Origin: a virus
Length of the DNA: 31,581 nt
UHGV virus genome: UHGV-1546770
Strand: one strand, 5' to 3'
Both the position numbers and the translations under genes were made by a program. Positions within the stretch are counted from its first letter, which is position 1; the number at the start of each line of letters is the position of its first letter. Below are positions 3,143 through 28,869 of this stretch, piece by piece. The notes beneath the pieces were generated by a model, which was not told where the DNA came from, made no database searches, and saw nothing but the letters and a program-made list of their open reading frames with translations.

Positions 3143-3669
3143 GTGGCACTTTTTAAATATGCCCTACTATTCGCAAGTAATCCAAGTAATTTTACGGCTG
3201 TATTACAAATACAATCTCCATCTTGCCACCACATACACTTCTCCTCTGAACACATCAACGTTTTTGACGACGTTGCAGTATCAGAAAGACAATAGCATAG
3301 TGGACAGTATTTTTTATCTTCCATGTCCGTCACCTCACATAAAAAATCAAAACTATCCATGAACTCATTATATTGTTCTACACAGCGCTCAAGACATGGA
3401 AAGTTATTAACTTCTTTCTTATATTGTTTTCCATAAAACTGCATATATGGCTGTCCAAACTCTTCATCAAGCACTAGCACATTATCAAAGTCATTCCAGT
3501 CAGAGATATCGTTTTTAAAGCAAATACTTACACTCAGCGCATGGTCAATACTCTTTGTTACATACCACGCCGCATCATGATTAATCCAGCTTCCGCCTTC
3601 TCTAAAATGTGCTTCAATAAGCTGCTCTTTAGTTGGCACATACTTAAGTTTATAGCTTTTTGCTTTCAT
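3139..3669 (-). CDS. hypothetical Cys-rich protein (176 aa)
   Basis: Intact ORF; start ATG overlaps the stop of the upstream ORF; C-terminal CPLCYC and CMWWQDGDCIC motifs. Confidence 0.6.
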   Translation of the reverse strand: MKAKSYKLKYVPTKEQLIEAHFREGGSWINHDAAWYVTKSIDHALSVSICFKNDISDWNDFDNVLVLDEEFGQPYMQFYGKQYKKEVNNFPCLERCVEQYNEFMDSFDFLCEVTDMEDKKYCPLCYCLSDTATSSKTLMCSEEKCMWWQDGDCICNTAVKLLGLLANSRAYLKSAT

Positions 3670-3893
3670 TATTTCACCTCATCCATCTTCGCGCCACAGT
3701 TGTGGCAGTAATTATGCGTATATTCTTGAGGGCATCCGCAATCGTTGCACCTATACTTCCACGACAGCCATGTTGCGATTTGATTTATTGCGTTCCAATT
3801 TCGGCGGCTGTTTGAGCCAATCCTCAACACCGTGTAAACATTTATTGAAACATTTCGGTGATTCGCACTCATTGATTTCTGCACAGCACTCAC
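3669..3893 (-). CDS. hypothetical zinc-ribbon protein (start uncertain)
   Basis: C-terminal CNDCGC...CHNCG motif; stop overlaps the start of 3139-3669; no RBS seen before either candidate start; overlaps 3751-4080 in another frame. Confidence 0.3.
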   Translation of the reverse strand: MSAVQKSMSANHRNVSINVYTVLRIGSNSRRNWNAINQIATWLSWKYRCNDCGCPQEYTHNYCHNCGAKMDEVK

Positions 3894-4080
3894 AAACAGT
3901 GGTCATTGATGCAATCCATGCAGCTAATTCCTCATCGCTCATCGCCCGGATGTGGTCGGCGTTGGTTCGCTTTTTCCTCCGGTACTCGCAAAAAGAAGCT
4001 GTGCATTCTCCTCTGATAAAATAAGTGCAATTTGTTTCTGCTTCTTCTGGTGTTCCAGCACCACATGTGTACTTAATCAC
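3751..4080 (-). CDS. hypothetical Cys-rich protein (109 aa)
   Basis: GTG start preceded by AAGGAG; multiple Cys (CECCAEINECESPKC). Confidence 0.45.
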   Translation of the reverse strand: MIKYTCGAGTPEEAETNCTYFIRGECTASFCEYRRKKRTNADHIRAMSDEELAAWIASMTTVCECCAEINECESPKCFNKCLHGVEDWLKQPPKLERNKSNRNMAVVEV

Positions 4081-4312
4081 TTGTACGCTCCTTAATAAAT
4101 TTTTCCCTGATTGCTTCTTTCTCTGGGTCTTCGTATGATGTCTGCCAATACGCTTGCAGCCATTGGATATGCCTTATTTCTTCGTCAGATAGCAAGTACA
4201 GATGATCCAAAACAACCTGTCTGCGCTTGTATCGGTCTGGATGGGCGTTCCCTGCATAGATGCACTGGCAGCTTTCATACTCACAGATTGGACACTTAGC
4301 CATTGTCAGCAC
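4073..4312 (-). CDS. hypothetical zinc-ribbon protein (79 aa)
   Basis: N-terminal CPICEYESCQC motif; intact ORF in series. Confidence 0.5.
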   Translation of the reverse strand: MLTMAKCPICEYESCQCIYAGNAHPDRYKRRQVVLDHLYLLSDEEIRHIQWLQAYWQTSYEDPEKEAIREKFIKERTSD

Positions 4313-4562
4313 CTTCTTTCCGTTCTCCGTATGAGCAGAAATCGTTGTCCTCAGTCCAGTTAAATGACAGTCTCATAGGGCAAGGCGGCTTGTTATGGTA
4401 CTTGCACTCCCGACATCTGACCACTTCCACGGCATCCTTTTCCAATAGCAATGCCGCTTTTCCATAAACGGAATGCTCATATACTCCCGGTGTAAAATCA
4501 GCATCGTGAATCATTTTTAATGCCGTTGCTACCGTCCGTCTATCGGCATCAATCGGCCGCAT
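4296..4562 (-). CDS. hypothetical protein (88 aa)
   Basis: Intact ORF; CRECKYHNKPPCP motif; short overlap with neighbours. Confidence 0.55.
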   Translation of the reverse strand: MRPIDADRRTVATALKMIHDADFTPGVYEHSVYGKAALLLEKDAVEVVRCRECKYHNKPPCPMRLSFNWTEDNDFCSYGERKEGADNG

Positions 4563-4818
4563 CTATAATCTCCTCCAAACCTGCAATATGTTCAATCATC
4601 ATTTCTTTCGCAAACAATTCTCCTTTATGCAAGCATTCTCTCGCTTGAATAGATGCATCGACCAATTCATCAATAAGCTGCTTTAGGTTATTCGCATCAC
4701 TATACCCGTCATAATCGAAACCGATGTCCCATATAAATTGTAACCATTCATCTACACAATTTGGCTCACACATTTTACATCCTGTCTGTTCATCAATCCA
4801 ATATTTCATTTTATTCAC
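4549..4818 (-). CDS. hypothetical protein (89 aa)
   Basis: Intact ORF; CKMCEPNC motif. Confidence 0.55.
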   Translation of the reverse strand: MNKMKYWIDEQTGCKMCEPNCVDEWLQFIWDIGFDYDGYSDANNLKQLIDELVDASIQARECLHKGELFAKEMMIEHIAGLEEIIDAAD

Positions 4819-6235: not shown

Positions 6236-6410
6236 AATTTGCTCCTTTCGGATCGTACATGTCACAAGCACCTGTGTCCTCATAACACAAATGCCCAACT
6301 ATAAAAGTCATCCCCATTTCTTTTTCTTTAGGAGTTGGATGTGGGATATCACAGCATAAATTCCAATCTCCACAACCAATATAATGCTTGCATGTCCCGC
6401 ATTTATCCAT
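6210..6410 (-). CDS. hypothetical zinc-ribbon protein (66 aa)
   Basis: CGTCKHYIGCGDWNLCC motif; downstream of promoter at 6535-6562. Confidence 0.45.
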   Translation of the reverse strand: MDKCGTCKHYIGCGDWNLCCDIPHPTPKEKEMGMTFIVGHLCYEDTGACDMYDPKGANYVNENRTS

Positions 6411-6534
6411 TTATCTTACGCCTCTTTCGTAAAAAATAGATACATATAAGCCAATCCTTATATTCATTTGACATTTGTTGATTGCTCCTTTATAAATTTG
6501 TTGCCTTAATGTACTATAATTTTATACTGTAGCC

Positions 6535-6562
6535 AGTATATCATATATCTGCTATTTGTCAA
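6535..6562 (-). promoter_or_regulatory. sigma70-type promoter (TTGACA-N16-TATACT)
   Basis: Minus strand TTGACA aatagcagatatatga TATACT in the 6411-6734 intergenic region. Confidence 0.4.
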
Positions 6563-6607
6563 TATGGCAAATTGTACAAAACTGTAGTTTATATTTTGCA
6601 ATTTTTA

Positions 6608-6643
6608 TATAAAAAAATAACTCCCACTATATAAGTGGGAGTT
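6608..6643 (-). terminator. putative intrinsic terminator
   Basis: Hairpin AACTCCCAC-tatataa-GTGGGAGTT followed on the minus strand by a T-run (complement of A7 at about 6611-6617); downstream of the helicase gene. Confidence 0.5.
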
Positions 6644-6734
6644 TATGTATAATTAAATCAATACATTGCTAAATATTATTTAATTAATACTATCAATCTT
6701 AAGACTATATCCAAGGATCTCACCTTTGTTGGCT

Positions 6735-8282
6735 TTACATTTTCTTCTTAAGTACACCAATTTCTTTCCAAACATTTCCGTCCATATCTACTTCAAAGCA
6801 GATCAAATCATTCTTAGAACCAACTCTGTTCTTTACAATTCTTAATCCAACATAATTTTTATCATATCTTAAATCATGTTCTATTGGCTCTCCCCAAGTA
6901 TCATCTTCACAGACATATACATATTTTTGCTTGTCGTCTGCTGTTAGGTGTTTCCACATTTGCATTTGGTCAGTAACATGCATCATTCTCTTTGAACTTG
7001 CGATCTCTTGAGAATTTAAGTTTTCAATGGGGATATCATGCGCTGAATCTGTAAGCTGGAAAGTACAAATACAATACATTTTTGTTTCATGAATCCACTC
7101 TGTAATTTTTGTAGCAGTTGCGGCTAACTTTGCAAAGTCTTCAAGTCCAGAACATTTAAGTGTATCATATGCTACACCATCACACTTGTAAATTGTATTG
7201 GCTTTTTTGATTTCCATTTCAAGCACTTCATCTTCATAGCAAGAGCCGATATTCTTAAACAAGAATTTGCCACTACTTTCAGATTCAACCCATTGCATAA
7301 TTCGTTGCACCTTACGATATTCAGAAGATGTTTCATAAATTCTCTTTTTATAAGACTCTTCATCTTCTGTATACACACCATTATCATCCATTTGTCTATA
7401 GATATACTTTCCGTTATCATCTTTATATGATCCGAGTGCAATTTCTCTTTCTGGTTTATAAATATCTTTAATTCCATGTAGCTCTTGAATCTCTGGAGAA
7501 TTAATGCATGTAACTAAGAAGTTCAATTTAATGCTCTCTGCTGACATTTCGTTTGCAAGCAATAGAATTTTTTGCTTTTGAACAAGGACTAGATACGCAA
7601 TAAGATAAACGAGATTTCTGCCCTTACCACTATTGCTCAAAGCTCCTGTCATCAAAACGTTTCCGGGAAGTAATCCTCTATAATACTTCTGAAGATATGG
7701 CCATGGCCCAGCAACACCCATAGATGGCATGCACAAGAATTGGTCAATACATGAAACTGCGTTCTCTGTAAGAACAACAGGTTCATCAATTGCTTGTACT
7801 TTATTAGCTACCTTGTCAATTCGACCACGAACAATTCTACAAATATCATCTGGCGTTAATGCATTGAAATTCTTAATTGCCAAGATTTTTGATACGTCAT
7901 ATCCAGTCTCATTAAAAGCCCTTAGTAATGAAAACTTTTTAAATATTGAAAGATAATTCTTAATATCATGAGGGTCACTCATTGCCATTAATTCTTTAAT
8001 TGTCTTATATCCACCATACTGTCTGTATTGTTTAAAACGCTCTTTAGACATGCTACAGAACGTATTAATTTTCAATTCAGTAAAATCTTCAGAATATGAA
8101 ACATAATAATCAGAAAATAACTGATAAAAAAACTCACATGCCTTGTCCGAAAAATCATATTTTGGGACAATTGAGGTTCCATATGTTAGATATAATGTTG
8201 GCTCTTTATAAAATGATCCAACTACCAGCATTTCGGACTGGCTATTAGTTAATTCAAGTTCCATATTTTCACTTCCTATCAA
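6735..8282 (-). CDS. DnaB-like replicative helicase family protein (515 aa), divergent P-loop
   Basis: P-loop-like GALSNSGKGR, and C-terminal LRIVKNRVGSKNDLICFEVD resembling the DnaB-family KxRxG motif; sits in a replication-type gene neighbourhood. Confidence 0.5.
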   Translation of the reverse strand: MIGSENMELELTNSQSEMLVVGSFYKEPTLYLTYGTSIVPKYDFSDKACEFFYQLFSDYYVSYSEDFTELKINTFCSMSKERFKQYRQYGGYKTIKELMAMSDPHDIKNYLSIFKKFSLLRAFNETGYDVSKILAIKNFNALTPDDICRIVRGRIDKVANKVQAIDEPVVLTENAVSCIDQFLCMPSMGVAGPWPYLQKYYRGLLPGNVLMTGALSNSGKGRNLVYLIAYLVLVQKQKILLLANEMSAESIKLNFLVTCINSPEIQELHGIKDIYKPEREIALGSYKDDNGKYIYRQMDDNGVYTEDEESYKKRIYETSSEYRKVQRIMQWVESESSGKFLFKNIGSCYEDEVLEMEIKKANTIYKCDGVAYDTLKCSGLEDFAKLAATATKITEWIHETKMYCICTFQLTDSAHDIPIENLNSQEIASSKRMMHVTDQMQMWKHLTADDKQKYVYVCEDDTWGEPIEHDLRYDKNYVGLRIVKNRVGSKNDLICFEVDMDGNVWKEIGVLKKKM

Positions 8283-8956: not shown

Positions 8957-10033
8957 TTACTGTGAAACTACTTCAAGAATCTGGTTTAGAATAGCAATAT
9001 CTGTAACCTTGGCGAACTGGTCTGGAAGTCCTGCTTCCTTTATGGCAGCACGTTTGGCTTTCTTGTCTTCAGGAGAAAGAGATGACAGAACTCCCTTAAT
9101 TTCTGCCTTAAGGTTCTTGCATTCTTCGTCTTTTCTAATTTCCACATCCAACTCGTCTGTTTCCATTAGATCCTCTTTATGTGAATTATAATAGTCTTCC
9201 TTTTCTTTTTTCTCCTGCTTTGATTTGCTCTCAATATATTCGTCTGTTGCGTCATGAGACTTAATAGAGTTCTTAATTGCATCCTTGACAGTATCAATAT
9301 AATTCTTTGCAGAAACTTCTACTCTGTCAGCAATATCTTCAAATCTACCACCTGCATCAATATATCCATTTCCACGAAAGTACATCCATCTGCTAACACC
9401 ATCTACATGCCCATCAGTAATTTCTCTTTCAATAACACCCATCATACAAATATCTGCCTTGTTAGCAAAAATCGAATCATAATCTGTTGAAAGATTAGAT
9501 GTAAGCATCTGGTATTCATCGCCATTTTTCTCTTTAATATCCTTAATCTTAGTGTGCCCAATAAACACTAGACAGTACCCACTAGATTCTAGTCTGGTAA
9601 TAACGGAATTAATTAGCTCATCCACTTTTCTACGCCCAGCTCCATAACCTCCAAAACACGCATTAAATTCATGCTTGGTGCCAGACTTCTTATAGTCAAG
9701 ACGCACAATTTCCTTTTGAGCCATAGAAATCCATTCGTCAACGGTATCAAATGCAATAATAGAAAACGAATTTTCGTCCTTATTTTCTACTAGTTCGTCA
9801 ACGACTTCCATTAGTGTAGCCCAATCTGGGCAATCAGCAACCATTAGATTGTCAATAGCAAGATAACCTCTCTCATTTCCACAGCTAATCAATAGGCCAT
9901 GACTCATGTCGCCATATAGTTCTTTAATTAAATTTGCAAACAATGTAGTTTTGCCCCATTTTTTTGGTGCTCTCCAATAGTGGCGATAGTTAGTAATATC
10001 TACTGTTACCTCATTTTTCTTCCATAAAGCCAT
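8957..10033 (-). CDS. P-loop ATPase, RecA-like (Sak4/AAA_24-like)
   Basis: Walker A APKKWGKTT, Walker B-like SIIAFDTVDEW, and LVFIGHTK motif; K/E-rich C-terminal extension. Confidence 0.5.
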   Translation of the reverse strand: MALWKKNEVTVDITNYRHYWRAPKKWGKTTLFANLIKELYGDMSHGLLISCGNERGYLAIDNLMVADCPDWATLMEVVDELVENKDENSFSIIAFDTVDEWISMAQKEIVRLDYKKSGTKHEFNACFGGYGAGRRKVDELINSVITRLESSGYCLVFIGHTKIKDIKEKNGDEYQMLTSNLSTDYDSIFANKADICMMGVIEREITDGHVDGVSRWMYFRGNGYIDAGGRFEDIADRVEVSAKNYIDTVKDAIKNSIKSHDATDEYIESKSKQEKKEKEDYYNSHKEDLMETDELDVEIRKDEECKNLKAEIKGVLSSLSPEDKKAKRAAIKEAGLPDQFAKVTDIAILNQILEVVSQ

Positions 10034-10040
10034 AATAATA

Positions 10041-11051
10041 TCAGTCTCCTTTACCTTTTAAACTATTTATATATCTATCTAACTCTTCTTGTGTGATATA
10101 TCCTTTTTCAATTGCATCTTCCGCATACAACCAATGCAATGCCTCGCCTGTTTGTGGATGTTTATACGTATAATTTTGTTTACCTCTACAGCACTTTGTA
10201 ATAGAGCTTGGATCACATCCATATAAATTTTGTACTTCTTTTGCTCCCCAAAAAATTTGATTTAATTCTATACAATATATTCTTCTACATTTCCACCAAT
10301 TACTACCTTTACGAGAATCACTCATCTTTTTCTTTGCTTCTTCTGTGTGATGTTTCCCATACATTGGATGATTGCTTGGATTTATAAATCTTTCTTTTGC
10401 TTTTTCTGATAGATTTAATTTTTGTTCATCTGACAATTTTTTACCTAAACTGGGATGTTGTTTTCCTATCCATATATGTTTGCCTTTAGTTGTTGGATTT
10501 GCCCAATATAATTTATGTTTTTCATACCATTGTTTATATGTTTCTTCATCCATGCGTTCTTTTGGAGAAACTTTAAACTGTGGATTATTCTCGCCTACTA
10601 ATCCTGCTCTTCCATACATTGGATGATTATTTGGATCTGAAAGTCTTTCTTTTGCAGCTTTTGATATCTTTTTTCTTGTTTCTTTACTTGGAGTCCATCC
10701 TTGCGTTGTTCCTCCACCATAAACAAGATTATACCAATTGTTAGATTCAACAGCATTAAAGAAAACACTATAATTATATTCCATTTCATTTAATTCTTCT
10801 GCAGAATAAGCAATATCAATTACATTTCTTACAAAATTTTCTTTTCCATATTTGTCAATTGCTTGTTTAAATGCTGCACCACTACCAAGATATTCTTGCC
10901 AATTTCCATAGAATTTTCTTTGGCCTAAATATCTTTTGCCATCAATCAAATTCGTTGTGATATAAATAAATCCATATGGATCTTTTACTTCCGTATATGT
11001 TGTATCTTGTAGCCCATCAACGGAAGAATTCATTTCTTTTAATTCTTCCAT
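10041..11051 (-). CDS. GIY-YIG homing endonuclease with NUMOD3 repeats and NUMOD1-like HTH
   Basis: N-terminal YGFIYITTNLIDGKRYLGQ (GIY-YIG), repeated NHPMYG...K..S motifs, C-terminal ELNQIFWGAKEVQNLYGCDPSSITKCCRGK helix-turn-helix. Confidence 0.7.
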   Translation of the reverse strand: MEELKEMNSSVDGLQDTTYTEVKDPYGFIYITTNLIDGKRYLGQRKFYGNWQEYLGSGAAFKQAIDKYGKENFVRNVIDIAYSAEELNEMEYNYSVFFNAVESNNWYNLVYGGGTTQGWTPSKETRKKISKAAKERLSDPNNHPMYGRAGLVGENNPQFKVSPKERMDEETYKQWYEKHKLYWANPTTKGKHIWIGKQHPSLGKKLSDEQKLNLSEKAKERFINPSNHPMYGKHHTEEAKKKMSDSRKGSNWWKCRRIYCIELNQIFWGAKEVQNLYGCDPSSITKCCRGKQNYTYKHPQTGEALHWLYAEDAIEKGYITQEELDRYINSLKGKGD

Positions 11052-11124: not shown

Positions 11125-12201
11125 TTACCATGGCTCATCTTCGTCGTCAGATTCATCGTCGCCCCAATCATCATCCACATTGGATGTTGACTCTGCCTTA
11201 CCAGTGAAATCCTGTTCTGCTTTCTTTGATGCATTTACCTTCTTAATTGCCTCATCAATTGCCTTTTCAGTATATGTTTCTTTGTCAATAGTTGATGGCT
11301 TTGCACCTGTAATAATAAGTTCTCGATGAGTCGGTGCAAAAACTCTCTTATTGTCCATATCATTAGATTCGCCCCAGCAATCATCGTCTTCCTCATCATT
11401 CACGTCTTCAACATTATTAACAACATTGATGTGTCCATGAACCTGAATGGAATTATAAGGCTTTAGCCCACTACGCATCTGCTTTGCGAGTTTTGCATCT
11501 TCAATAATAAATTCAGCAGACTCAATAGAGTTATAATTCACAATCTTTGCATCTACCACAAATCGACCAGTTGGCTTGTCGTTTTCTCTTTCCTGATCAA
11601 TACCAACAAAAACAATTGTCTGCGTAAAATCATGAGCGGGAGCATAATCCTCCGCCTCAAAGTCAACATCATTCTGACATAGAGAAATTTGTGTTGGGAC
11701 AAACTTTGTGGTACGAGAGACTTCCCCATCTTTGTTAGTATAACTGCCAAATTCTAGATTTCCTTTAACAAAAACAGAATCACCATCCTGAAGATTCTCG
11801 CTAATGTATTCACATGCGTCATACTCAGTAAGCGTCTTGTTGTCGTTTCTTACCTTTCCGTTTTCGTCCTTGATCTTCTGAAGTCCAGTAAGCACACCAA
11901 TCATACGATAGCCTTCAGGAGCCTTCTTAATTCTGTCTTTCCATGCAATTGCCTTTGTATCAGTATTGCCAGTGTCTTTATCCTTCTTACTAAAATACAC
12001 CTTGTCACGCGGCATACCATTAAGCGTTGGGAAAATTGTCTTCTTGTCATCATACTCCACGCCAAAATTAATCATTCTGAACTCTTTGCCAGTTCTTGTC
12101 TGCTTTTCTACGTAGAAACTATCCTTTTCTACTCCGCTTACAATTCCTCTAACCTGAAAAGTTCCCTTGGTTTGTGGAAGTTCAAAAAGTTTGTTTGCCA
12201 T
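11125..12201 (-). CDS. putative ssDNA-binding protein (358 aa) with acidic C-terminal tail
   Basis: C-terminus DDDWGDDESDDEDEPW (acidic tail ending in an aromatic residue, as in SSB/gp2.5-type proteins); lies in the replication module. Confidence 0.4.
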   Translation of the reverse strand: MANKLFELPQTKGTFQVRGIVSGVEKDSFYVEKQTRTGKEFRMINFGVEYDDKKTIFPTLNGMPRDKVYFSKKDKDTGNTDTKAIAWKDRIKKAPEGYRMIGVLTGLQKIKDENGKVRNDNKTLTEYDACEYISENLQDGDSVFVKGNLEFGSYTNKDGEVSRTTKFVPTQISLCQNDVDFEAEDYAPAHDFTQTIVFVGIDQERENDKPTGRFVVDAKIVNYNSIESAEFIIEDAKLAKQMRSGLKPYNSIQVHGHINVVNNVEDVNDEEDDDCWGESNDMDNKRVFAPTHRELIITGAKPSTIDKETYTEKAIDEAIKKVNASKKAEQDFTGKAESTSNVDDDWGDDESDDEDEPW

Positions 12202-12770: not shown

Positions 12771-13745
12771 TTAAACCATATCATCCAAAATATTCGCGGC
12801 TTGCTGCTTTTTGTCTTTAGACATATTTGCATATCTCATAGTAGTAGCAATATTTTTATGATTAAGAACTGACGCACAAAGATAAATATCTCCAGTCTTT
12901 TCGTACAAATTAGTTGCACAAGAATGTCTCAACACATGTGGTGTAACATGCTTACTTGTCACATCCTTACTATATTTTTCTAGCATCACCCTAATGCCGT
13001 CTCTTGTAATTCTCTTTTTAAAGCTAGAAATAAACAAGGCATCTGTATTCGCCATGCTAAAATATTTGTTTCTATCCTGTAGCCACAATTCTAGCTGCTT
13101 CTTTACTCTATCGCCAAATAGAATATTACATGTTTTTCCTCTTTTTTCGATTACCTTAATAGTATTATTTTCGAAATCAATATCACCAATATCAATTTGC
13201 GTGATTGCAGATACACGCAACCCAGTAGTTAGTCCAAGCATAATAATGGCTAGATCCCTATTTTTCATCTTTTTGCTTGCAAGCTTATCAACATTTTCAA
13301 GAATCATTTGCATTTCTTTTTCTGTTAAATAAGCAACATCTGGTGTATCTTGCACTTTAGGACGTTCTGTTCTCTCCATTGGATTTTCTTTAATATAATC
13401 ATTTTCTTTAAGGAACCCAAAAAACGTATTCAATGCAGACCACTTTGTCGCACGAATACTATCACTTGTATTATAATGTCCATTGATAGTTTCTTTATTC
13501 TTCAATGCGGCAAAATATTTATTAATATCCAAAGGTGTTACCTTTTTATAAAAATCATTTGAGATTCTATTTTCATTAATAAATTCTGCAAATTCCTTCA
13601 CATATGCTACATATCTCTCAACTGTTGTATAAGATTTAGTTATACACATATAATAATAAAATTCAGAAAAAATTTTAGGAAGTCCTGTTAATTTTGCCTG
13701 CATCTTATTTGTAGCAACAATTTCCTTTTCCATTCTTCCTGTCAT
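12771..13745 (-). CDS. tyrosine recombinase / integrase (XerC/XerD-like)
   Basis: Catalytic-domain motifs TGLRVSA (Arg), HVLRHSCAT (His-x-x-Arg-His) and TMRYANM (Tyr) in the expected order. Confidence 0.85.
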   Translation of the reverse strand: MTGRMEKEIVATNKMQAKLTGLPKIFSEFYYYMCITKSYTTVERYVAYVKEFAEFINENRISNDFYKKVTPLDINKYFAALKNKETINGHYNTSDSIRATKWSALNTFFGFLKENDYIKENPMERTERPKVQDTPDVAYLTEKEMQMILENVDKLASKKMKNRDLAIIMLGLTTGLRVSAITQIDIGDIDFENNTIKVIEKRGKTCNILFGDRVKKQLELWLQDRNKYFSMANTDALFISSFKKRITRDGIRVMLEKYSKDVTSKHVTPHVLRHSCATNLYEKTGDIYLCASVLNHKNIATTMRYANMSKDKKQQAANILDDMV

Positions 13746-13747
13746 TT

Positions 13748-14230
13748 TTAACCCTCCTTAATTTTCTTTTTTCTCCATTTAACAAAAGTATATGTCGCCA
13801 ATGCCCAGATGAAAAGTCTTCCATTCAAAATTGCTGCAATGCCAATAATGAAAACATACCACATCCATCCAATAAGAAGGCAATCTGGCTTCTGCTTGTA
13901 GCAATCTTCTCCATCTTCTACCCAATGATAATATTCCTTATTATTTTTATATACTTTATTTCTATCGACAACAACGTCTCTTGTTTTTGGGGCAATAACA
14001 CTAACAATATTATTCGTAAAAGCATCAAGTGAAAACATAAAATCACATGCCGCGATATTGCTATGGACAAAACATGTATCTGATTTTTTATTGTATTTAA
14101 TAAATGTAATTTCAATTTCTGGGAAAAGTGCAACATCTTTCTTGATGAAATTTTTACATTTAAATTTTGATCCAGTGTAATATCTAGTTCCGTTATAGTC
14201 AAAGTAATCGCACATAACACCGTTGTTCAT
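13748..14230 (-). CDS. hypothetical membrane-anchored protein (160 aa)
   Basis: C-terminal hydrophobic helix WMWYVFIIGIAAILNGRLFIWALATYTF then basic tail; only 3 nt upstream of the recombinase gene. Confidence 0.55.
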   Translation of the reverse strand: MNNGVMCDYFDYNGTRYYTGSKFKCKNFIKKDVALFPEIEITFIKYNKKSDTCFVHSNIAACDFMFSLDAFTNNIVSVIAPKTRDVVVDRNKVYKNNKEYYHWVEDGEDCYKQKPDCLLIGWMWYVFIIGIAAILNGRLFIWALATYTFVKWRKKKIKEG

Positions 14231-14231
14231 A

Positions 14232-14477
14232 TTAAGACATTACCTCCTCAATAATATCAACTACTTCACTAAGCAAATCAATGCATTCTTCAAGATGTTC
14301 ACAACACTCTTCTGCCTTGCTATACCTGTCAGATCCTTGCAAATTCTCAGGCATATTATCTAGGCACTCCTGTTCTTCGTCATAAATATCTTGAATACGA
14401 CTATTAAGCTGTTCAATTTCTGTGGATAGGGTTTCTAGTTTTTTTCTGCGTTTATTATTCATAGAAAATACCTCCAT
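14232..14477 (-). CDS. hypothetical acidic coiled-coil protein (81 aa)
   Basis: Intact ORF, strongly acidic; downstream of consensus promoter at 14510-14538. Confidence 0.5.
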   Translation of the reverse strand: MEVFSMNNKRRKKLETLSTEIEQLNSRIQDIYDEEQECLDNMPENLQGSDRYSKAEECCEHLEECIDLLSEVVDIIEEVMS

Positions 14478-14509
14478 TCAAAAATTATAATTATTTATTT
14501 GTTATTATG

Positions 14510-14538
14510 ATTATAACGCTATAATTTTGTTTTGTCAA
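14510..14538 (-). promoter_or_regulatory. sigma70-type promoter, exact consensus TTGACA-N17-TATAAT
   Basis: Minus strand TTGACA aaacaaaattatagcgt TATAAT; -35 overlaps the TGA stop of the methyltransferase gene. Confidence 0.6.
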
Positions 14539-15059
14539 GTATTTTGTTGAGTTTTCTTTACCCTCCATACGGGCGCGGATTTAGTTCCACCAACTCGCTC
14601 AACAGAATCAAACATCGAAAGCAAAATCTCCTCGATATCTGTTCCTTTTAGATCCATCTTTCGAGGGCTTTGAGGATAATTACAAACAAATTCTCCATTA
14701 TTTTCCATTACTAGTTTAATTTGATTCAATGTTTCAAAAAGCATTTGCAGAGAACTCTGCACATTAAGCACATTAGAAGCGAATACGATATCATACTGTC
14801 TATTCAGTGCAAATTTATCGAGTAGTACATCTCCATTGCCAACCCATAGATCATATGCTACCACATCAAATCCTTTGCTTAGAAGATATTTTGTACTAGT
14901 AGCTCCCTTCCCCGCACCAAAGTCGAGAATTGTTTTACTCTTATCCACATTACTTTCCACCCAAAGAGGAACTATTGCACGAATCTTTCCATCCTTAATA
15001 GCCGAAGCGCCTGCACTCCGACTAGTTGCTTTTGCAATTTTGATCTCCTGAGCTGTCAT
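14535..15059 (-). CDS. class I SAM-dependent methyltransferase (174 aa), substrate unknown
   Basis: Motif I ILDFGAGKGATS, acidic post-I residue in VVAYDL, and IVFASNVLNV block. Confidence 0.6.
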   Translation of the reverse strand: MTAQEIKIAKATSRSAGASAIKDGKIRAIVPLWVESNVDKSKTILDFGAGKGATSTKYLLSKGFDVVAYDLWVGNGDVLLDKFALNRQYDIVFASNVLNVQSSLQMLFETLNQIKLVMENNGEFVCNYPQSPRKMDLKGTDIEEILLSMFDSVERVGGTKSAPVWRVKKTQQNT

Positions 15060-15090
15060 ACTTTAATGTCCTTTCTATTACAAAGCTAAT

Positions 15091-15120
15091 TAAAAAGAGA
15101 CCTGCCTATTCGTAAGTCTC
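15091..15120 (-). terminator. weak putative intrinsic terminator
   Basis: 5-bp stem GAGAC/GTCTC with large loop followed on the minus strand by TTTTT. Confidence 0.3.
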
Positions 15121-16636: not shown

Positions 16637-17266
16637 TTATTTCAATTTTTCATTCACATAAAATTCAGTACCCTTATGATAACACATCTGACATCCAAGA
16701 CAACTTTTTGCTCCACAATTCACACTTACATTATTCTCTTTAATATATTCTTTGTCATATACAGTAAAGACATGATCAACAAACCAAAATCTTTCCATAT
16801 TAAGTTTCATTACCTCATTCATCTTTGGGCTGCTAACTACCAAAGAAAGATTATCAGGTTTTGCAATTTTTCTTTCATTGAACACTCTATCACAAATTGC
16901 ATAATTCTTTGTCCAAATACCAAATGAGGTATATGGATTTCTATTACAAATGTTTACATAATTAATCAACTGTGTCTCATTTTCAATATCTCCAAACGCC
17001 TCAAATCTATAAATCAGATCATTTGTAACAGGGATTTCGTTCCCTTGCAGGATCTTGGTCTTAAGAATATGTCCATTCTCAATCAAATGCTCTTTCAGTG
17101 ACTTGCGCATCTTCATATAGGTGCTTGCATAACAATGACAGCACACTCCATCTTTATCCTTCTGTCTTGCAAGACAAAATTTATTATTTGCACAGCATGT
17201 CCCAATGCTCTTCATCCCATGTAGTTTTCCAGAATGATTTGTTTCCCAAACGATTCCGTTCATCAT
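16637..17266 (-). CDS. hypothetical Cys-rich protein (209 aa), possibly Gp37/Gp68-like
   Basis: N-terminal GTCCANNKFC...GVCCHCYA cluster and C-terminal CGAKSCLGCQMC; family assignment from memory only. Confidence 0.5.
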   Translation of the reverse strand: MMNGIVWETNHSGKLHGMKSIGTCCANNKFCLARQKDKDGVCCHCYASTYMKMRKSLKEHLIENGHILKTKILQGNEIPVTNDLIYRFEAFGDIENETQLINYVNICNRNPYTSFGIWTKNYAICDRVFNERKIAKPDNLSLVVSSPKMNEVMKLNMERFWFVDHVFTVYDKEYIKENNVSVNCGAKSCLGCQMCYHKGTEFYVNEKLK

Positions 17267-18477: not shown

Positions 18478-18966
18478 TTACTCATCCTCCTCAAGAATCC
18501 AGTCATATCCAAGCCATTTAATTTCATCATCAGAAAAACCAATCGCATACACATCTCTACGAGCAATTTCAAGTTCTACATTTCCATTGTCTGTACAATA
18601 ATCAATTGCATTTTGGAGCAATTCCATGGCTCTTTTATGTGTAATATATCCCAAATTATTTGTCTTGTCTGGAATGATTTCATTTCCATCCTCGTCTTCA
18701 TCGCCTTCAACCCACCAAGACTCCCACATATTATAGGTCTCACTTAGACGTTCCATCATAAACTCTTCACAGCAAGAATCTTCAACATATGCTCTATAAT
18801 CAGGATCTTCAATTTCTTCTGTGCTATGCCATTCATAATAATATCCATCCAGCATATCAAGGATCTCTTTTTCGAGATATTTATATGCATCATCCCATTT
18901 AATGCACAATTCTCTTTCAAAACAATTTACAAAATATCGTGTAATCATATTATTTGCTCCTTTCAC
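18478..18966 (-). CDS. hypothetical acidic protein (162 aa)
   Basis: Intact ORF, acidic and Trp/Tyr-rich. Confidence 0.55.
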   Translation of the reverse strand: MKGANNMITRYFVNCFERELCIKWDDAYKYLEKEILDMLDGYYYEWHSTEEIEDPDYRAYVEDSCCEEFMMERLSETYNMWESWWVEGDEDEDGNEIIPDKTNNLGYITHKRAMELLQNAIDYCTDNGNVELEIARRDVYAIGFSDDEIKWLGYDWILEEDE

Positions 18967-22784: not shown

Positions 22785-23762
22785 TTAAGCTCCAACCCCA
22801 ACCTTTGCGTTAATCAGCTTGACGAACTCGTCCATCCATGCATGACCATCCATAATCTTTCCCCACCGGTTTTCTTCATAGTTTGCAGTGTTTCTGTTCG
22901 GAGCGCTATGACCAATCATATCACTCATCGCATTCACAGCGCCCCATGCAGTTCCTTTGAACTTAGCAATATCGGGCATGAAGTAGCAGATAGAATAGTT
23001 ATCTTTTACTTTCTGAATGTTTGCTTTCTTGCGATCAGAATCATTTTCCGTTACAGGGAACATCTGGTCAAGGATTTCATTGATCTGCTCAAAGTCAAGT
23101 TTGATATTCGCAAGTCTATCTGCCTCTTCGTCAAGTGCATCCATATAAAGATTTGCCATGCCCAAACAATGTCTCGCTTCTTCAAGCTTCTCGTCAAGAT
23201 TCCCAATATGCTTTGTGCTCCAAGAACGCTGAGCAGTATTGAGTGCAAGTGAGAGAGTATTATTGCAAACGACTCGAATTGGAGTCATGCCAATCTTGAT
23301 CGCTCCAGTTCCGTCATGAGAATTAGAGAACACCATATAAGGTTCCACATCATCATCAAGCACTTTCTTAGTCGGCATCTTTGCAAGCAGCCAAACTCTT
23401 TTCCCTCCGTTGAGAGAACCTGCGGTTTCATAGCGAACAATTCCATCTTCCGTTTCACCAACAATTGCATCAGTGAAAGAAAATGCGTCTACATTCTGTA
23501 CAATTTTATATCTATTCGTTACAATGCCAAGCACAGTTTTATCATCACTTCTGATGTTTGCTTTGTAGTTCTTGATTTCCGTTCCATCATCCATAAAGAC
23601 AGGAGTCTGTTCAACAGTCCAATCAAGCCCTGCCAGTTTGAGCGCTTCTGCACTGTTGGGAGCATCCGCAAGGATTTTGCATCTATCCTGCGTCTCCATA
23701 TAATGCCAAGGTTTCTCGCGTACACTAAACATGCTGTCGTTCATTTCAATGCAATGAGCCAT
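22785..23762 (-). CDS. DUF932 / TIGR03299-like phage-plasmid protein (start trimmed from track ORF 22785-23882)
   Basis: Motif MVFSNSHDGTGAIKIGMTPIRVVCNNTL matches the family signature as recalled from memory; internal ATG at 23760-23762 preceded by AAAGGAG. Confidence 0.55.
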   Translation of the reverse strand: MAHCIEMNDSMFSVREKPWHYMETQDRCKILADAPNSAEALKLAGLDWTVEQTPVFMDDGTEIKNYKANIRSDDKTVLGIVTNRYKIVQNVDAFSFTDAIVGETEDGIVRYETAGSLNGGKRVWLLAKMPTKKVLDDDVEPYMVFSNSHDGTGAIKIGMTPIRVVCNNTLSLALNTAQRSWSTKHIGNLDEKLEEARHCLGMANLYMDALDEEADRLANIKLDFEQINEILDQMFPVTENDSDRKKANIQKVKDNYSICYFMPDIAKFKGTAWGAVNAMSDMIGHSAPNRNTANYEENRWGKIMDGHAWMDEFVKLINAKVGVGA

Positions 23763-23994
23763 AATTCTTATCTCCTTTAACAAAATACATATTGATTCTT
23801 GCTTTTCTTGCTTTTCTTTTTTTCTTTTTTGCCGCACGCTGTTTCCAAACAGGATGGTCTGGGTACATTTCAAAACAATCACATTGTTTTTGCAAGCATC
23901 TTTTTCGTTCTACTTGATTCCATGTCGCTCCCTTGTCATGAAAATGGCAGTAACCACACACATTGTCGCTTTCTGACCCATACAAGCAAAGCAT
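23746..23994 (-). CDS. hypothetical zinc-ribbon protein with basic tail (82 aa)
   Basis: AAAAGGAGG RBS; CGYCHFHD...CDCF motifs and a KKKKRKARKAR stretch; 17-nt overlap with the downstream gene. Confidence 0.5.
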   Translation of the reverse strand: MLCLYGSESDNVCGYCHFHDKGATWNQVERKRCLQKQCDCFEMYPDHPVWKQRAAKKKKRKARKARINMYFVKGDKNYGSLH

Positions 23995-24105: not shown

Positions 24106-24519
24106 TTACGCAATGCGTACAAGTCCACCAAATCTGCCTTGCACCGCAATGCTGCCAAACTCACTGAAATAATCTACTGTTGTGTTCCACACATAGGCGA
24201 ACACATATCCATCTTTGATGTCTTCATTTTCCATTTCCCACTCCTCATCATAATCAGACACAAACAAGAAATTGTACATATCCATTTCCATTGTAGGAGT
24301 ATGAATTACATGATACACAAGTGCATTATGTTCCTTTTCAAACTCATGCACTTTTTCTGTGAGTTCTTTGTTGCTACTAAATTCATACAAGCCACCTGTC
24401 TGTTCAGTAAGCTGCACTTCATCTCTGTTCTTAAATGCCTTAATGCATGGAGCAAAGAGTCCAAGTGCTTCCATGCGTTTTATAGCTTCTTCTTTTTTAA
24501 TTTCTCTTGATATGTTCAT
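24106..24519 (-). CDS. hypothetical protein (137 aa)
   Basis: Intact ORF; start 3 nt from the upstream gene stop. Confidence 0.55.
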   Translation of the reverse strand: MNISREIKKEEAIKRMEALGLFAPCIKAFKNRDEVQLTEQTGGLYEFSSNKELTEKVHEFEKEHNALVYHVIHTPTMEMDMYNFLFVSDYDEEWEMENEDIKDGYVFAYVWNTTVDYFSEFGSIAVQGRFGGLVRIA

Positions 24520-24521
24520 AT

Positions 24522-24980
24522 TTATTTCCTCCTTTTAATATCGTACTCATCAAGTACATCAACACATTCATCGTAGCCATCAGTGCATTCACACTTCTCA
24601 AGCTGTATCTTCCAGCATGCAACTTCGTAGGGAGTGTTCTCAAAGAACTCATCAATGAACTCCTCTGCTTCACTTACAACTTCGTCAAATTTATCCTGTG
24701 CTTCATCTTTGTCGTCGAAGTCTCCGAAGCTGCGTTCATAATCGGTGATACGACCGTTAGTATCATAGCCAAGTCCACAGACGAAATAACGGATTTCCGT
24801 TTCTTCTTCCTCCTCGTCATCAAAAATATCATATCCTTCTCTTTCTGCCCATTCTCTTACTTTGTCATCGCTCATCCAACCAAGAAGTGACTTTGCAATG
24901 TCTTCCCAGTTAACGCATATTTCCTCGAAGTAATTAATGAGTGCAGTTTCGTTAGGTCTTGCGTTTGCGTAACTAAACAT
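24522..24980 (-). CDS. hypothetical highly acidic protein (152 aa)
   Basis: Long Asp/Glu runs (DIFDDEEEEETEIRYF, FGDFDDKDEAQDKFDEV, VDVLDEYD). Confidence 0.55.
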   Translation of the reverse strand: MFSYANARPNETALINYFEEICVNWEDIAKSLLGWMSDDKVREWAEREGYDIFDDEEEEETEIRYFVCGLGYDTNGRITDYERSFGDFDDKDEAQDKFDEVVSEAEEFIDEFFENTPYEVACWKIQLEKCECTDGYDECVDVLDEYDIKRRK

Positions 24981-25127
24981 ATTTGTTCTTCCCTTTAATT
25001 ATTATTTAAGTTCTAAAACCAAAAGCTTCATCTACTCAGACAAACCGCCATCTGATTAAACTCTTTCATTTTATCTTTAGTGATTAAAAGGATGTCTTCA
25101 CTTTCACACATAATAACCTCATATTTT

Positions 25128-26116: not shown

Positions 26117-27067
26117 TTAATAATACTTGTATGCATCTTTGTCAACATTTACGTCAGTGATATCTCCATATGTGATATCAGAATGTGCCATCAAGAATCT
26201 ACCAATTGCCTCTTCCATTGAATATGCGTCCGTGTCGTACCACTCTGTGTTTCCGTTAGTGTTAACATACTCAATCAGATAATAGCCATAATTGTATTCT
26301 GGCTCATCACGATTATTGTCTTCAAGATATCTGTCAATGTCAAACAGAGAATCATATCGCACAGGTGCTTCCACATAATCGAATTTGTCATTCTCCGTTG
26401 TGCGCTCAAGGATTTTACATGCCTCCTTAATGCTTCTTTCCATTTCAGAAAGAATGACATATTCACTTTTTGTATGTGCTTTGTAATAACCACAAGAAAG
26501 ATTCACTGCTGCACAACCAAGAGCGGGAGCGATTTCACAGATATCAGAATAAGATCCATACGCTGTTTTATAAAATTCCTTTGTAATAAAGTCCTCGAAC
26601 TCATCATTTGCACAGGAATAAAACACTGCATCATTTGCGTTGGCACGATCAAATTCAATGATGTAATTGAACTCAAGATTTCTTGCCAGCTCAGAGTCTG
26701 CAAACTTACTTGAGCCTACGCAACCAACCTCTTCGTCCTCGCAGAACAGAACAGAGCAGTTAAACTTTTCAAGAATCTTGAAAATCATATAGACACCGCA
26801 TCTATCGTCGCCTCCGATTCCGTTAGGGCTTGAAACTTTATTGTTCTTTTTACTATACATGAACATATTAGGAAGCTTTTCATGCACAGTATCAAGATGT
26901 GCAACCAGCAGCACAGGAAATTTCCCTTGTGCATATACATACCCATCTCTGTTAAGAACTGTTCCATGAGTCTTTTGCAGCTTCTGTCTAACATGATTCT
27001 TTAGACTTGCTTGAGACATCTTGCAAATTTTTTCAAACTCTTTATTCATAATTGATTTTACCTCCAT
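26117..27067 (-). CDS. putative co-catalytic zinc metallopeptidase-like protein (316 aa)
   Basis: Ordered motifs VLLVAHLDTVHE, GIGGDDRCGV and FCEDEEVGCVGS resemble the His/Asp, Asp-Asp and Glu-Glu metal-ligand blocks of M20/M28/M42-type enzymes; assignment from motif memory only. Confidence 0.45.
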   Translation of the reverse strand: MEVKSIMNKEFEKICKMSQASLKNHVRQKLQKTHGTVLNRDGYVYAQGKFPVLLVAHLDTVHEKLPNMFMYSKKNNKVSSPNGIGGDDRCGVYMIFKILEKFNCSVLFCEDEEVGCVGSSKFADSELARNLEFNYIIEFDRANANDAVFYSCANDEFEDFITKEFYKTAYGSYSDICEIAPALGCAAVNLSCGYYKAHTKSEYVILSEMERSIKEACKILERTTENDKFDYVEAPVRYDSLFDIDRYLEDNNRDEPEYNYGYYLIEYVNTNGNTEWYDTDAYSMEEAIGRFLMAHSDITYGDITDVNVDKDAYKYY

Positions 27068-28869
27068 TAAACCGCTTCATCAATGTCTGTTTCATTCTCA
27101 AGAATTTCTCTCAGGCAATCTTCGCAGTACATCTTTCCTTTGTGTTCTCTCAAATTGTTGTTTCTAAAACATTCTCCACACTCTTCACAGCAACTATAAT
27201 AATAATCACAACAATCGTCGCACACATATTCATCCTGAGATTCAATATAGTTCATACACTCTCTTGGATAATATTCTCCACATTCCGCGCAATACTCATA
27301 ATATTCGTCTCTGCAATTTTCACAGACACAAATTTCATAGCCTCTTGAATTATGAACATATGTCCCTTCGCCAACGTAATATTCATCACAGTCATTGCAA
27401 TGGAAAACACAATCTCCACAATAAGGCTCTCCGTCAATATAGATGGCATCATCTTCATCGACATATTCGCCGCATGCAGCACATTTAACTCCGTGATGAC
27501 AGCAAGAAATATTGTCGTCGCAATCATGCTCATAACCACATTCGATGCAAATTGGTGTATGTCCAACAGTAATGCAATTCTCGTTGTCGTTTCCTTTAGG
27601 ACGGCTAAGAGTGCAATTTCCAAAGTTGTCGTAATCTCTATAATGAGTACCTTCAGACTCAATATATCTGCCTGCTTCGCTAGTTCCCTTACTCACAGTC
27701 CAGAAGTTCGGGAAATCAAAAATTTCAGACATGATTTTCTGAACAATTGCTCTGAAAGCGGTGTAGCCGGTGCTGCATCCATCATTGTCTTGCGGATAAA
27801 GTCTGCCCTGAATCAGTTTGTCTTCTCCCCAGTGATACATCTGACGGTTAATCTTTGGCTCATTCCAGAAATCGTTTCCATCATAAGATGCATCCACAGT
27901 GTAAAACACCATAGAAGGAGAATCGAGCATATAACTAATAGTACCAGAAGAATACATTCCCTGATAACTATTAGGCATGCCTCTTTTGTTTTGCTTATCA
28001 ATTGTATGACAGCTCGCCCAGCTATTGCCAAAGCTCATTGTGAGATAATCAAGAGGATTCACAGAAAGAATAGTATGCCTTGTAATCTTGAGCGGATTGA
28101 GCGCGTCAGCATACTTTGCGAATTCCCTATTGTACTCAGGATGCTTGCTAATACCAATGTAAGCAAGAAGCTTATTGATAACACGACTCGTCTTCTGCCC
28201 GTCATGTGCATGAATTTCAGGACAAATTCTGTTTAGCTCATCAGCAAGTTCGCTATCAATATACTGAGAAGTATAGGCTGGAATTCTAATCAAGAAAGCA
28301 AAGATATTTGTTGGGTATTTCTGTCCATTCAGTGAAGTTTCTTTCTTCATGCTTTCGGGCATAAAATTATTTTCTTTTACATATTCGACCACATCACCAT
28401 CAATCACCCATGACTTGAATCTCTCCAATGCATTACGATCAGTTACACGTTCAAAATCATGGCTAAATACAATCATGAATTTGCCTTCCAGATAGTTCGG
28501 ATGCTTCTTAAATGCGGCAATCAGGTCTTTCTTGTTATTCGCCCATGTGTCAATGATTTTGTTCAGTGCCCTGTCCGTATATTCATAGTCATATTCATCA
28601 AGCAAGTTTTCCATCTGGTCAAGAAGAATTTCTCTTTCTTCTTCAGTGATAATATTACTTACATCCATTTTACTTTCTCCTTCCTTTTCATCAAGCAAAT
28701 CAAAGTATTGCGCATCTACCCAATAGCCTTCGCCGTTTATGTTTTTAACAAAAATGTTGTCGTCAGTATATTTACTAATCTCTACAACACGCCCTCTCCA
28801 ACCGTTTGTTGTGATGCCATAAGGAGCACCACGCTGTGCAATTACTCTATCACCAAGTTTAAATTTCAT
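27067..28869 (-). CDS. large hypothetical protein (600 aa) with C-terminal tandem zinc-ribbon array
   Basis: Longest ORF in the window; C-terminal ~150 aa contain at least 8 CxxC pairs in repeated units (CAACGEYV, CNDCDEYY, CENCRDEYY, CAECGEYY, CEECGEC); plus-strand ORF 27352-28236 is its shadow. Confidence 0.65.
   Translation of the reverse strand: MKFKLGDRVIAQRGAPYGITTNGWRGRVVEISKYTDDNIFVKNINGEGYWVDAQYFDLLDEKEGESKMDVSNIITEEEREILLDQMENLLDEYDYEYTDRALNKIIDTWANNKKDLIAAFKKHPNYLEGKFMIVFSHDFERVTDRNALERFKSWVIDGDVVEYVKENNFMPESMKKETSLNGQKYPTNIFAFLIRIPAYTSQYIDSELADELNRICPEIHAHDGQKTSRVINKLLAYIGISKHPEYNREFAKYADALNPLKITRHTILSVNPLDYLTMSFGNSWASCHTIDKQNKRGMPNSYQGMYSSGTISYMLDSPSMVFYTVDASYDGNDFWNEPKINRQMYHWGEDKLIQGRLYPQDNDGCSTGYTAFRAIVQKIMSEIFDFPNFWTVSKGTSEAGRYIESEGTHYRDYDNFGNCTLSRPKGNDNENCITVGHTPICIECGYEHDCDDNISCCHHGVKCAACGEYVDEDDAIYIDGEPYCGDCVFHCNDCDEYYVGEGTYVHNSRGYEICVCENCRDEYYEYCAECGEYYPRECMNYIESQDEYVCDDCCDYYYSCCEECGECFRNNNLREHKGKMYCEDCLREILENETDIDEAV

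Follow-up and report, generated by a model that had tools for sequence, protein, structure and literature searches.

Does an extreme content of aspartate and glutamate identify a small phage protein as a mimic of DNA? The question is raised by a gene at positions 24522..24980 on the minus strand of a 31,581-nucleotide stretch of the virus genome UHGV-1546770 (the whole of this stretch is referred to as the window), for whose 152-amino-acid (aa) product a first-pass annotation had proposed a role as a candidate DNA mimic of the Ocr/ArdA type, a class of early phage genes. By homology, the product is a fusion of two small modules, each of which is an unannotated, metagenome-only family of ~60 and ~92 aa, respectively. 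Membership of the Ocr or ArdA families is rejected on sequence, profile and fold, and a broader role, in which it would inhibit a nucleic-acid-binding protein or serve as an acidic decoy for one, is tentatively favoured.

The acidic gene and its composition

The gene is a complete coding sequence, running from an ATG at 24978-24980 to a TAA at 24522-24524, with a Shine-Dalgarno-like sequence, AAGGGAAG (24988..24995, minus strand), read 7 nt 5' of the start codon. Its product contains 26 Glu and 20 Asp residues (46 of 152, 30.3%) along with 16 Lys and Arg, giving an isoelectric point (pI) of 4.05 and a net charge of about -30.5 at pH 7. The open reading frame (ORF) is intact, and the description of the protein as strongly acidic (net charge about -30) holds. 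The charge distribution, which had been suggested as a check, resolves in a sliding window into three acidic stretches: D54-E60 (DDEEEEE), 87-114 and 131-147.

In D+E fraction the target ranks first among the 82 minus-strand ORFs of at least 50 aa in the window, and the binomial probability of at least 46 acidic residues in 152, given a window mean of about 16%, is 8e-6; the acidity is therefore genuine and no chance fluctuation. Comparisons with relatives gave a ratio of nonsynonymous to synonymous substitution rates (dN/dS) of ~0.2, with values of 0.18-0.26 wherever dS was unsaturated, and the full length of 152 aa is kept by many metagenome homologues at 80-97% identity. These substitution patterns indicate that the target is a real gene under purifying selection.

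Both modules belong to larger families

Homology searches divide the protein after residue 60. The first search returned 24 metagenome proteins, in which nine clusters at 90% identity covered the full 152 aa (80-97% identical to the target), and many proteins of ~91 aa matched target residues 61-152 only. The 209 proteins listed by a profile search were mostly ~92 aa long and also aligned to residues 61-152 only, and a HMMER scan of 1.84 billion representatives gave 109 clusters at E ≤ 1e-3.

Residues 61-152 constitute the C-domain (24525..24800, minus strand), which was delimited by structure prediction, the family alignment (A3) and per-column conservation. The target C-domain aligns with 69 members of the family at 40-97% identity and scores 123.7 bits against the family hidden Markov model (HMM). 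The family carries the successive motifs RYYVCGxGYD, FGDFDxxEEA, IQLExCE and ECIDV, and its invariant residues (Y72, A94, E128, C130, C139, D141 and E145) are all present in the target. In some members the C-domain is fused to various helical C-terminal extensions. On average, 70 C-domains carry a net charge of -17.6 per ~87 aa (extremes of -6 and -25) and 28% D/E. Acidic residues are conserved in at least 90% of sequences at 12 positions (73, 80, 82, 87, 89, 92, 93, 128, 131, 134, 141 and 145), and the variable surface columns 96, 106-107, 119 and 132-138 are enriched in acidic residues as well. Judged from these columns, acidity is a conserved, family-wide trait of the C-domain and not an accident of one protein. 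Cysteine is also frequent (mean of 4.7 per ~88 aa): C130 and C139 are invariant, C68 is found in 80% and C77 in 74% of members. Histidine is almost absent from the family.

The N-module (residues 1-53, 24822..24980, minus strand, with the motif RPN...LLGWMSDDxV..WA..GY and followed by an acidic tail) likewise has an existence of its own. In the HMMER scan, residues 1-60 also occurred as stand-alone proteins of ~60 aa (family sizes of 50-85 aa), and the same module is fused to unrelated C-termini in the relatives P0137, P0168, P0183, P0194 and P0176. A profile of the module detected 329 homologues at E ≤ 1e-3, none of which has a Pfam domain or an informative name. Target residues 1-60 score 96.8 bits against the family HMM (alignment A4), which places them within the family, and the signature shared by alignments A4 and A7 reads RPN...DW..(L/I)A..LLGW(M/L)SDDEV..(F/W)A...GY, followed by a poly-acidic tail. 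Searches of Pfam, PHROGs and PDB sequences with the target and with profiles of 70 and 88 sequences found nothing significant. Two marginal matches, to the DNA-binding part of Lsr2 (E = 0.09, residues 40-52) and to a Musashi RNA recognition motif (E = 0.1), were rejected as local motif resemblances.

Two genes joined across a ribosome-binding site

The origin of the two-module protein can be read from related loci carrying the C-domain family (L001-L011 and L017-L021, L011 being a 165.6-kb contig of a faecal metagenome-assembled genome (MAG)). In L010 the N-module and the C-domain are separate, adjacent genes, with a stop and then a new frame in translation. The N-module gene ends in ...DIFDDYEEE-TAA, the C-domain gene starts 2 nt on with MEIRYF..., and a homologue of window gene 24106-24519 follows. 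In the DNA alignment (A5), L010 GAGGAGGAATAAAAATGGAA is matched to window GAGGAGGAAGA--AGAAACGGAA: in the window clade the TAA stop was lost by a 2-bp deletion just upstream of the junction, and ATG was changed to ACG. This ACG, the codon of Thr61 (24798..24800, minus strand), marks the fusion junction, at the point where relatives start a separate C-domain gene with ATG. The acidic linker D54-E60 (24801..24821, minus strand), which was delimited by aligning the window with L010, L009 and L001 and has low confidence in both structural models (pLDDT, the predicted form of the local distance difference test, of 57-62), consists of the ancestral acidic tail of the N-module plus the read-through former Shine-Dalgarno sequence of the C-domain gene, GAGGAGGAAGAAGAA (24801-24815). 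A putative terminator at 24788-24801 was rejected, being a short hairpin within coding sequence at this junction.

The fused form is abundant, with 210 member sequences in cluster P0001 alone, and is therefore no sequencing error. As aligned, the window clade presents a clean case of two small phage genes joined across a ribosome-binding site. L009 has its N-module gene two genes upstream of the C-domain gene, and in L001-L008, L011 and L017-L021 there is no N-module within 4-10 kb of the C-domain gene. Since the window clade, L010 and L009 are the only cases in which an N-module occurs close to the C-domain, the linkage is clade-specific, and a general linkage of the two modules was rejected.

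The 3' end of the target is shaped in a similar manner. The codons of its C-terminal KRRK (AAAAGGAGGAAA, 24525-24536) are the Shine-Dalgarno sequence (AAGGAGG) of the next gene (24106..24519, minus strand), whose ATG lies 2 nt past the target stop and which is syntenic in L010. It encodes a 137-aa product with a net charge of -12 and without a Pfam or PHROG match. Through both the KRRK end and the Glu run, Shine-Dalgarno sequences can be seen to mould amino-acid composition at gene ends.

Predicted structure

Modelling with AlphaFold2 on the 70-sequence alignment gave a mean pLDDT of 80, with values above 90 over most of residues 61-150 and low values in the N-terminal part. The predicted C-domain is a beta-hairpin/helix/beta-hairpin arrangement (strands 62-72 and 78-88, helices 91-107 and 109-112, strands 122-132 and 137-149). 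The N-module was modelled separately, from residues 1-60 with 88 homologues (pLDDT 88), and is predicted to be a three-helix bundle (helices 9-21, 25-35 and 38-47, preceded by a helical turn at 4-7) with a disordered acidic tail; a joint alignment of both modules (A6) misaligned the C-domain sequences and was dropped for whole-protein modelling. The structure prediction that had been proposed as a check for DNA-like charge patterning thus yields an alpha/beta domain that is compact and globular, accompanied by a small bundle of helices, and no elongated, DNA-shaped body. A fold search against BFVD found no match at E ≤ 1e-3, and no convincing structural relative of either module emerged from the fold searches.

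From strand periodicity in the model, the side of the sheet that faces the helix would be formed by Y65, V67, Y81, F85, I125, L127, I140 and V142, and E92 and E93 may have a structural role at the helix N-terminus. A zinc site made of four cysteines (C68, C77, C130 and C139) is unsupported, because invariance is limited to C130 and C139, and the inferred hairpin register places C77 well away from C68.

A tentative role as an acidic decoy and the alternatives

The reading that we prefer, as a possibility held at less than even confidence, is that the target acts on a nucleic-acid-binding protein as an acidic decoy or inhibitor. The gene product is a small, soluble, strongly acidic accessory protein of a low-GC gut phage of ~150-165 kb, built from two independently mobile modules, and it would act stoichiometrically and not as an enzyme. 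In this scheme, of which we infer the decoy mechanism, the type of target and the role of the N-module, the C-domain, as the bearer of most of the conserved negative charge, would bind and block the positively charged nucleic-acid-binding surface of a protein belonging to the host or to a competing element. Candidate partners would include a restriction or defence nuclease and a DNA-metabolism or nucleoid protein, and the N-module, as a head, would act as an adaptor or promote oligomerisation. Such electrostatic decoy action would be meant in a broad sense (cf. Ocr, ArdA and TifA). Several observations favour the decoy reading: the charge reaches the level of Ocr, is conserved and is under purifying selection; there is no enzymatic signature, and the context is a phage accessory array; both modules occur alone and with varied partners, a modularity typical of counter-defence proteins; and there is a single parallel with the position of ArdA (protein P0158) as well as the precedent of TifA, both of which are described below.

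Other observations weigh against a decoy. Neither sequence and profile searches nor fold comparison linked the target to a known DNA mimic or anti-defence protein. The window proteome is acidic overall, with a pI below 5 in ~24 of 52 candidate genes, and since many small proteins of this phage are acidic, acidity is a weak discriminator. The Glu run is in part a by-product of the fusion, being a translated Shine-Dalgarno sequence. A promoter and terminator scan around the target gave results at chance level, so that the status of an early gene is unsupported. The combination of ArdA with DUF3846 on which the ArdA parallel depends was found in only 1 of 187 ArdA-bearing plasmid records. The predicted fold is compact and globular, with a highly specific conserved Cys/acidic face: by strand periodicity, the best-conserved residues (R64, Y66, C68, L70, Y72, D80, E82, Q126, E128, C130, C139, D141 and E145) would lie on the open face of the sheet. 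With its mixture of aromatic, Cys and acidic residues, this face resembles a metal site or a specific interface more than it does a diffuse array imitating phosphates, and in the model it could equally serve to bind a metal or ligand or to make obligate contact with a phage partner.

The alternative that survives best is a small metal- or ligand-binding domain, acting as a regulatory or accessory subunit of a phage protein such as the 137-aa product or the DUF932 protein encoded at 22785-23882 (minus strand), in which acidity would be for cation binding or partner recognition and not for a decoy. In the model, the invariant C130 and C139 face each other across the beta3/beta4 hairpin, with C68 and C77 conserved in 80% and 74% of members, and the invariant E128, D141 and E145 would share a face of the sheet. 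L010 preserves the gene order target - 137-aa gene - DUF932, DUF932 is found just downstream of the C-domain gene in L001-L004 and L009, and translation of the target is coupled to that of the gene that follows. However, the DUF932 and 137-aa neighbours are absent near L005, L007, L011 and L017-L021, and with neighbours lacking near distant members the synteny looks like shared ancestry of one phage lineage. Moreover, no known metal-site motif was found, His is almost absent, and there is no known fold relative with such a site. We regard this explanation as rather unlikely.

An acidic chaperone or assembly factor, shielding a basic phage protein (DNA-binding, packaging or internal) until it is needed, would account for the high conserved negative charge and the disordered poly-Glu linker, and several basic proteins are encoded in the window; but the surroundings lack genes for structure or packaging (the window is occupied by replication and recombination genes and small unknowns), and family members have no conserved basic partner gene beside them, which leaves it a very slim probability. 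Equally slim is that of true B-DNA mimicry as in Ocr and ArdA, by an elongated dimer that would copy the phosphate backbone with its carboxylates and block type I restriction-modification enzymes.

If the decoy reading is true, acidic counter-defence proteins would gain a new family of distinct structure, and it would come from abundant uncultured gut phages of ~150 kb, a group for which, to our knowledge, hardly any anti-defence genes have been identified. Should it be wrong, the target is one more conserved small phage protein without an assigned function. Either way, a high Asp/Glu content alone does not identify mimics of the Ocr/ArdA type, a caution that follows from the several equally acidic proteins of the window and from the partial origin of the Glu run in a fusion. 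The most useful leads are the fusion mechanism and the parallel with the position of ArdA.

Genomic context and distribution

Every plausible gene of the window lies on the minus strand, and the target is one member of an extended run of small accessory genes on that strand, transcriptionally upstream of the replication module. Recognisable products are a DnaB-like helicase (6735-8282), an AAA_24/Sak4-like protein (8957-10033), an SSB-like protein (11125-12201), a tyrosine recombinase (12771-13745; Phage_integrase, E = 6e-35), a methyltransferase (14535-15059), GP88 (16637-17266), the DUF932 protein and an M28-peptidase-like protein (26117-27067). A GIY-YIG (SegE-like)/NUMOD3 homing endonuclease (10041-11051) is placed between the AAA_24/Sak4-like and SSB-like genes of the replication module. 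For the other small genes, from 17.6 to 31 kb, the matches were uninformative or absent.

The helicase shares 31% identity with its counterpart in Geobacillus virus E3 (141 kb) and has weak similarity to SPbeta-group phages. Viral contigs of IMG/VR, 148.7 and 157.1 kb long, contain near-identical copies of the target, and the window is therefore taken to derive from an uncultured phage with a large genome of low GC (36%). Relatives include IMGVR_UViG_3300045988_123494 and _147876. The contigs that carry the C-domain family as a whole are viral or viral-like and 148-206 kb in length, apart from two partial viral ones of 41-65 kb, and a search of 185,579 reference genomes found one occurrence, on the faecal MAG contig L011. 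This distribution points to a family essentially restricted to one lineage of large gut phages. Among 50,697 GenBank phages there was no match by megablast (11.6 kb) or by tblastn with the target, a typical C-domain and a typical N-module, a result to be read with the low-complexity filter in mind, which may mask acidic runs.

Conserved neighbours of the family include a pair of ~540-600-aa and ~300-aa proteins upstream and a ~225-aa protein downstream, with DUF932 downstream in the closer clade; a literature search for DUF932 found no functional information. Gene order across the loci indicates that these neighbours reflect shared genome architecture and not a tight functional pair. In the window the upstream pair consists of the 316-aa M28/M20-peptidase-like protein (26117-27067) and a 600-aa protein with a net charge of -48 (27067-28869), encoded on the minus strand in abutting frames, and its position upstream of the family is preserved in the window, L001, L007 and L011.

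Related phage contigs also bear mobile or retro-elements within these arrays. In L003 an IS21-like pair (rve and IstB) is found within the small-gene array at 12976-15120, and in L005 a 420-aa reverse transcriptase (RVT_1) at 3336-4598. Directly downstream of the family member in L011, a 197-aa ORF (6270-6863) with an HELGH motif and zinc-ribbon-like CPKC and CGAC motifs resembles, by eye, an SprT-like metalloprotease. The tyrosine recombinase gene of the window is located in the middle of the same-strand replication/accessory block, though the C-domain family is nearly absent from the 185,579 bacterial reference genomes; the enzyme may reflect a resolvase function or a plasmid-prophage lifestyle rather than chromosomal integration.

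Two other acidic products of the window deserve mention. The 81-aa product of 14232-14477 (minus strand), which the first-pass annotation had named as a second candidate mimic, is indeed acidic (net charge of -14, 27% D/E), and nothing about it is specific to DNA mimicry. It is a member of phrog_4068 (E = 7e-20, function unassigned) with weak Pfam matches of coiled-coil type only, and it has a basic N-terminus (NNKRRKK), after which comes an acidic, heptad-like helical sequence that includes a DNMPENLQ motif and several Cys (CC..C). Its gene is located between a 160-aa gene beside the recombinase and the methyltransferase gene. The 162-aa product of 18478-18966 (minus strand) is about as acidic as the target (net charge of -29, 27% D/E) and has no Pfam or PHROG match. 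By eye, an ORF of L011 (4849-5265) has a similar motif (...YY.EWH...), an indication that these phages possess a further conserved acidic family.

Comparison with Ocr, ArdA and TifA

Ocr (T7 gp0.3) is a DNA-mimic inhibitor of type I restriction-modification, BREX and other systems. It is an all-alpha, elongated, banana-shaped dimer that mimics ~24 bp of bent B-DNA and occupies the DNA-binding groove. In composition the resemblance noted at first sight stands: T7 Ocr (NC_001604) has 29.1% D/E and a net charge of -28 in 117 aa, against 30.3% and -30 in the 152 aa of the target, and both are small phage proteins without enzymatic motifs and with near-equal D/E fraction and charge. In homology it does not. 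A Pfam scan of the target and 70 members of alignment A3 at E ≤ 1 found no Ocr family, hhalign of A3 against T7 Ocr gave a probability of 0.2% with 1 aligned column, and PDB sequence searches with the target gave no match. The compact alpha/beta model of the target also differs from the all-alpha elongated dimer of Ocr.

ArdA (PF07275) is a DNA-mimic anti-restriction protein of conjugative elements and of polyvalent proteins of Firmicutes, and its size and net charge are similar to those of the target. PF07275 gave no match to the target at E ≤ 0.1 or to 70 relatives at E ≤ 1, and the same library detects it in a Vescimonas protein at E = 7.8e-39. The assignment to the Ocr/ArdA type consequently fails. 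As modelled, the target lacks the three-domain elongated fold from which the DNA-like dimer of ArdA is built, and its context is a phage small-gene array rather than the leading region of a conjugative element.

One architectural parallel connects the C-domain with ArdA. The distant relative P0158 combines a C-domain with DUF3846, on a contig that also has DUF4313 and ParB_N genes, and the best match of its DUF3846 part is a plasmid protein, WP_228738146, of Vescimonas fastidiosa (pMM35_01; L014, 4332-6104). This 590-aa polyvalent protein has the architecture ArdA - DUF3846 - LPD18 - DUF4316, so that in P0158 the C-domain takes the place of ArdA on the N-terminal side of DUF3846. Its gene adjoins DUF3849, MutS-like and TnpV-like genes. 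ArdA domains are described from polyvalent proteins of conjugative elements of Firmicutes (PMC5512222). With one protein on each side and one plasmid record, the parallel is a weak lead, and ArdA-DUF3846 was rejected as a common architecture. An extended version, in which the C-domain would be an anti-restriction or anti-defence decoy of new fold replacing ArdA, and the N-module a general adaptor head recombined onto small effectors, the two forming a modular counter-defence system of this uncultured phage lineage, is in our view improbable.

Among the closest known systems we also count the RbcS-like small-subunit fold (e.g., 6has_A). A precedent is TifA (Orf65 of Enterococcus phage phi47), a small acidic phage protein that inhibits type IV restriction enzymes; it has an SH3-like fold with 21% acidic residues, and it binds the nuclease directly through an electronegative surface without being DNA-shaped (PMC11322646). 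TifA thus indicates that acidic nuclease inhibitors need no DNA shape (PMC11322646). Against its published description, the target is more acidic (30%), has a different fold and is composed of two modules. By this analogy, inhibition through direct binding, as in TifA, is judged the most likely mode of action for the target, which most plausibly represents a new family among the acidic phage-encoded protein inhibitors.
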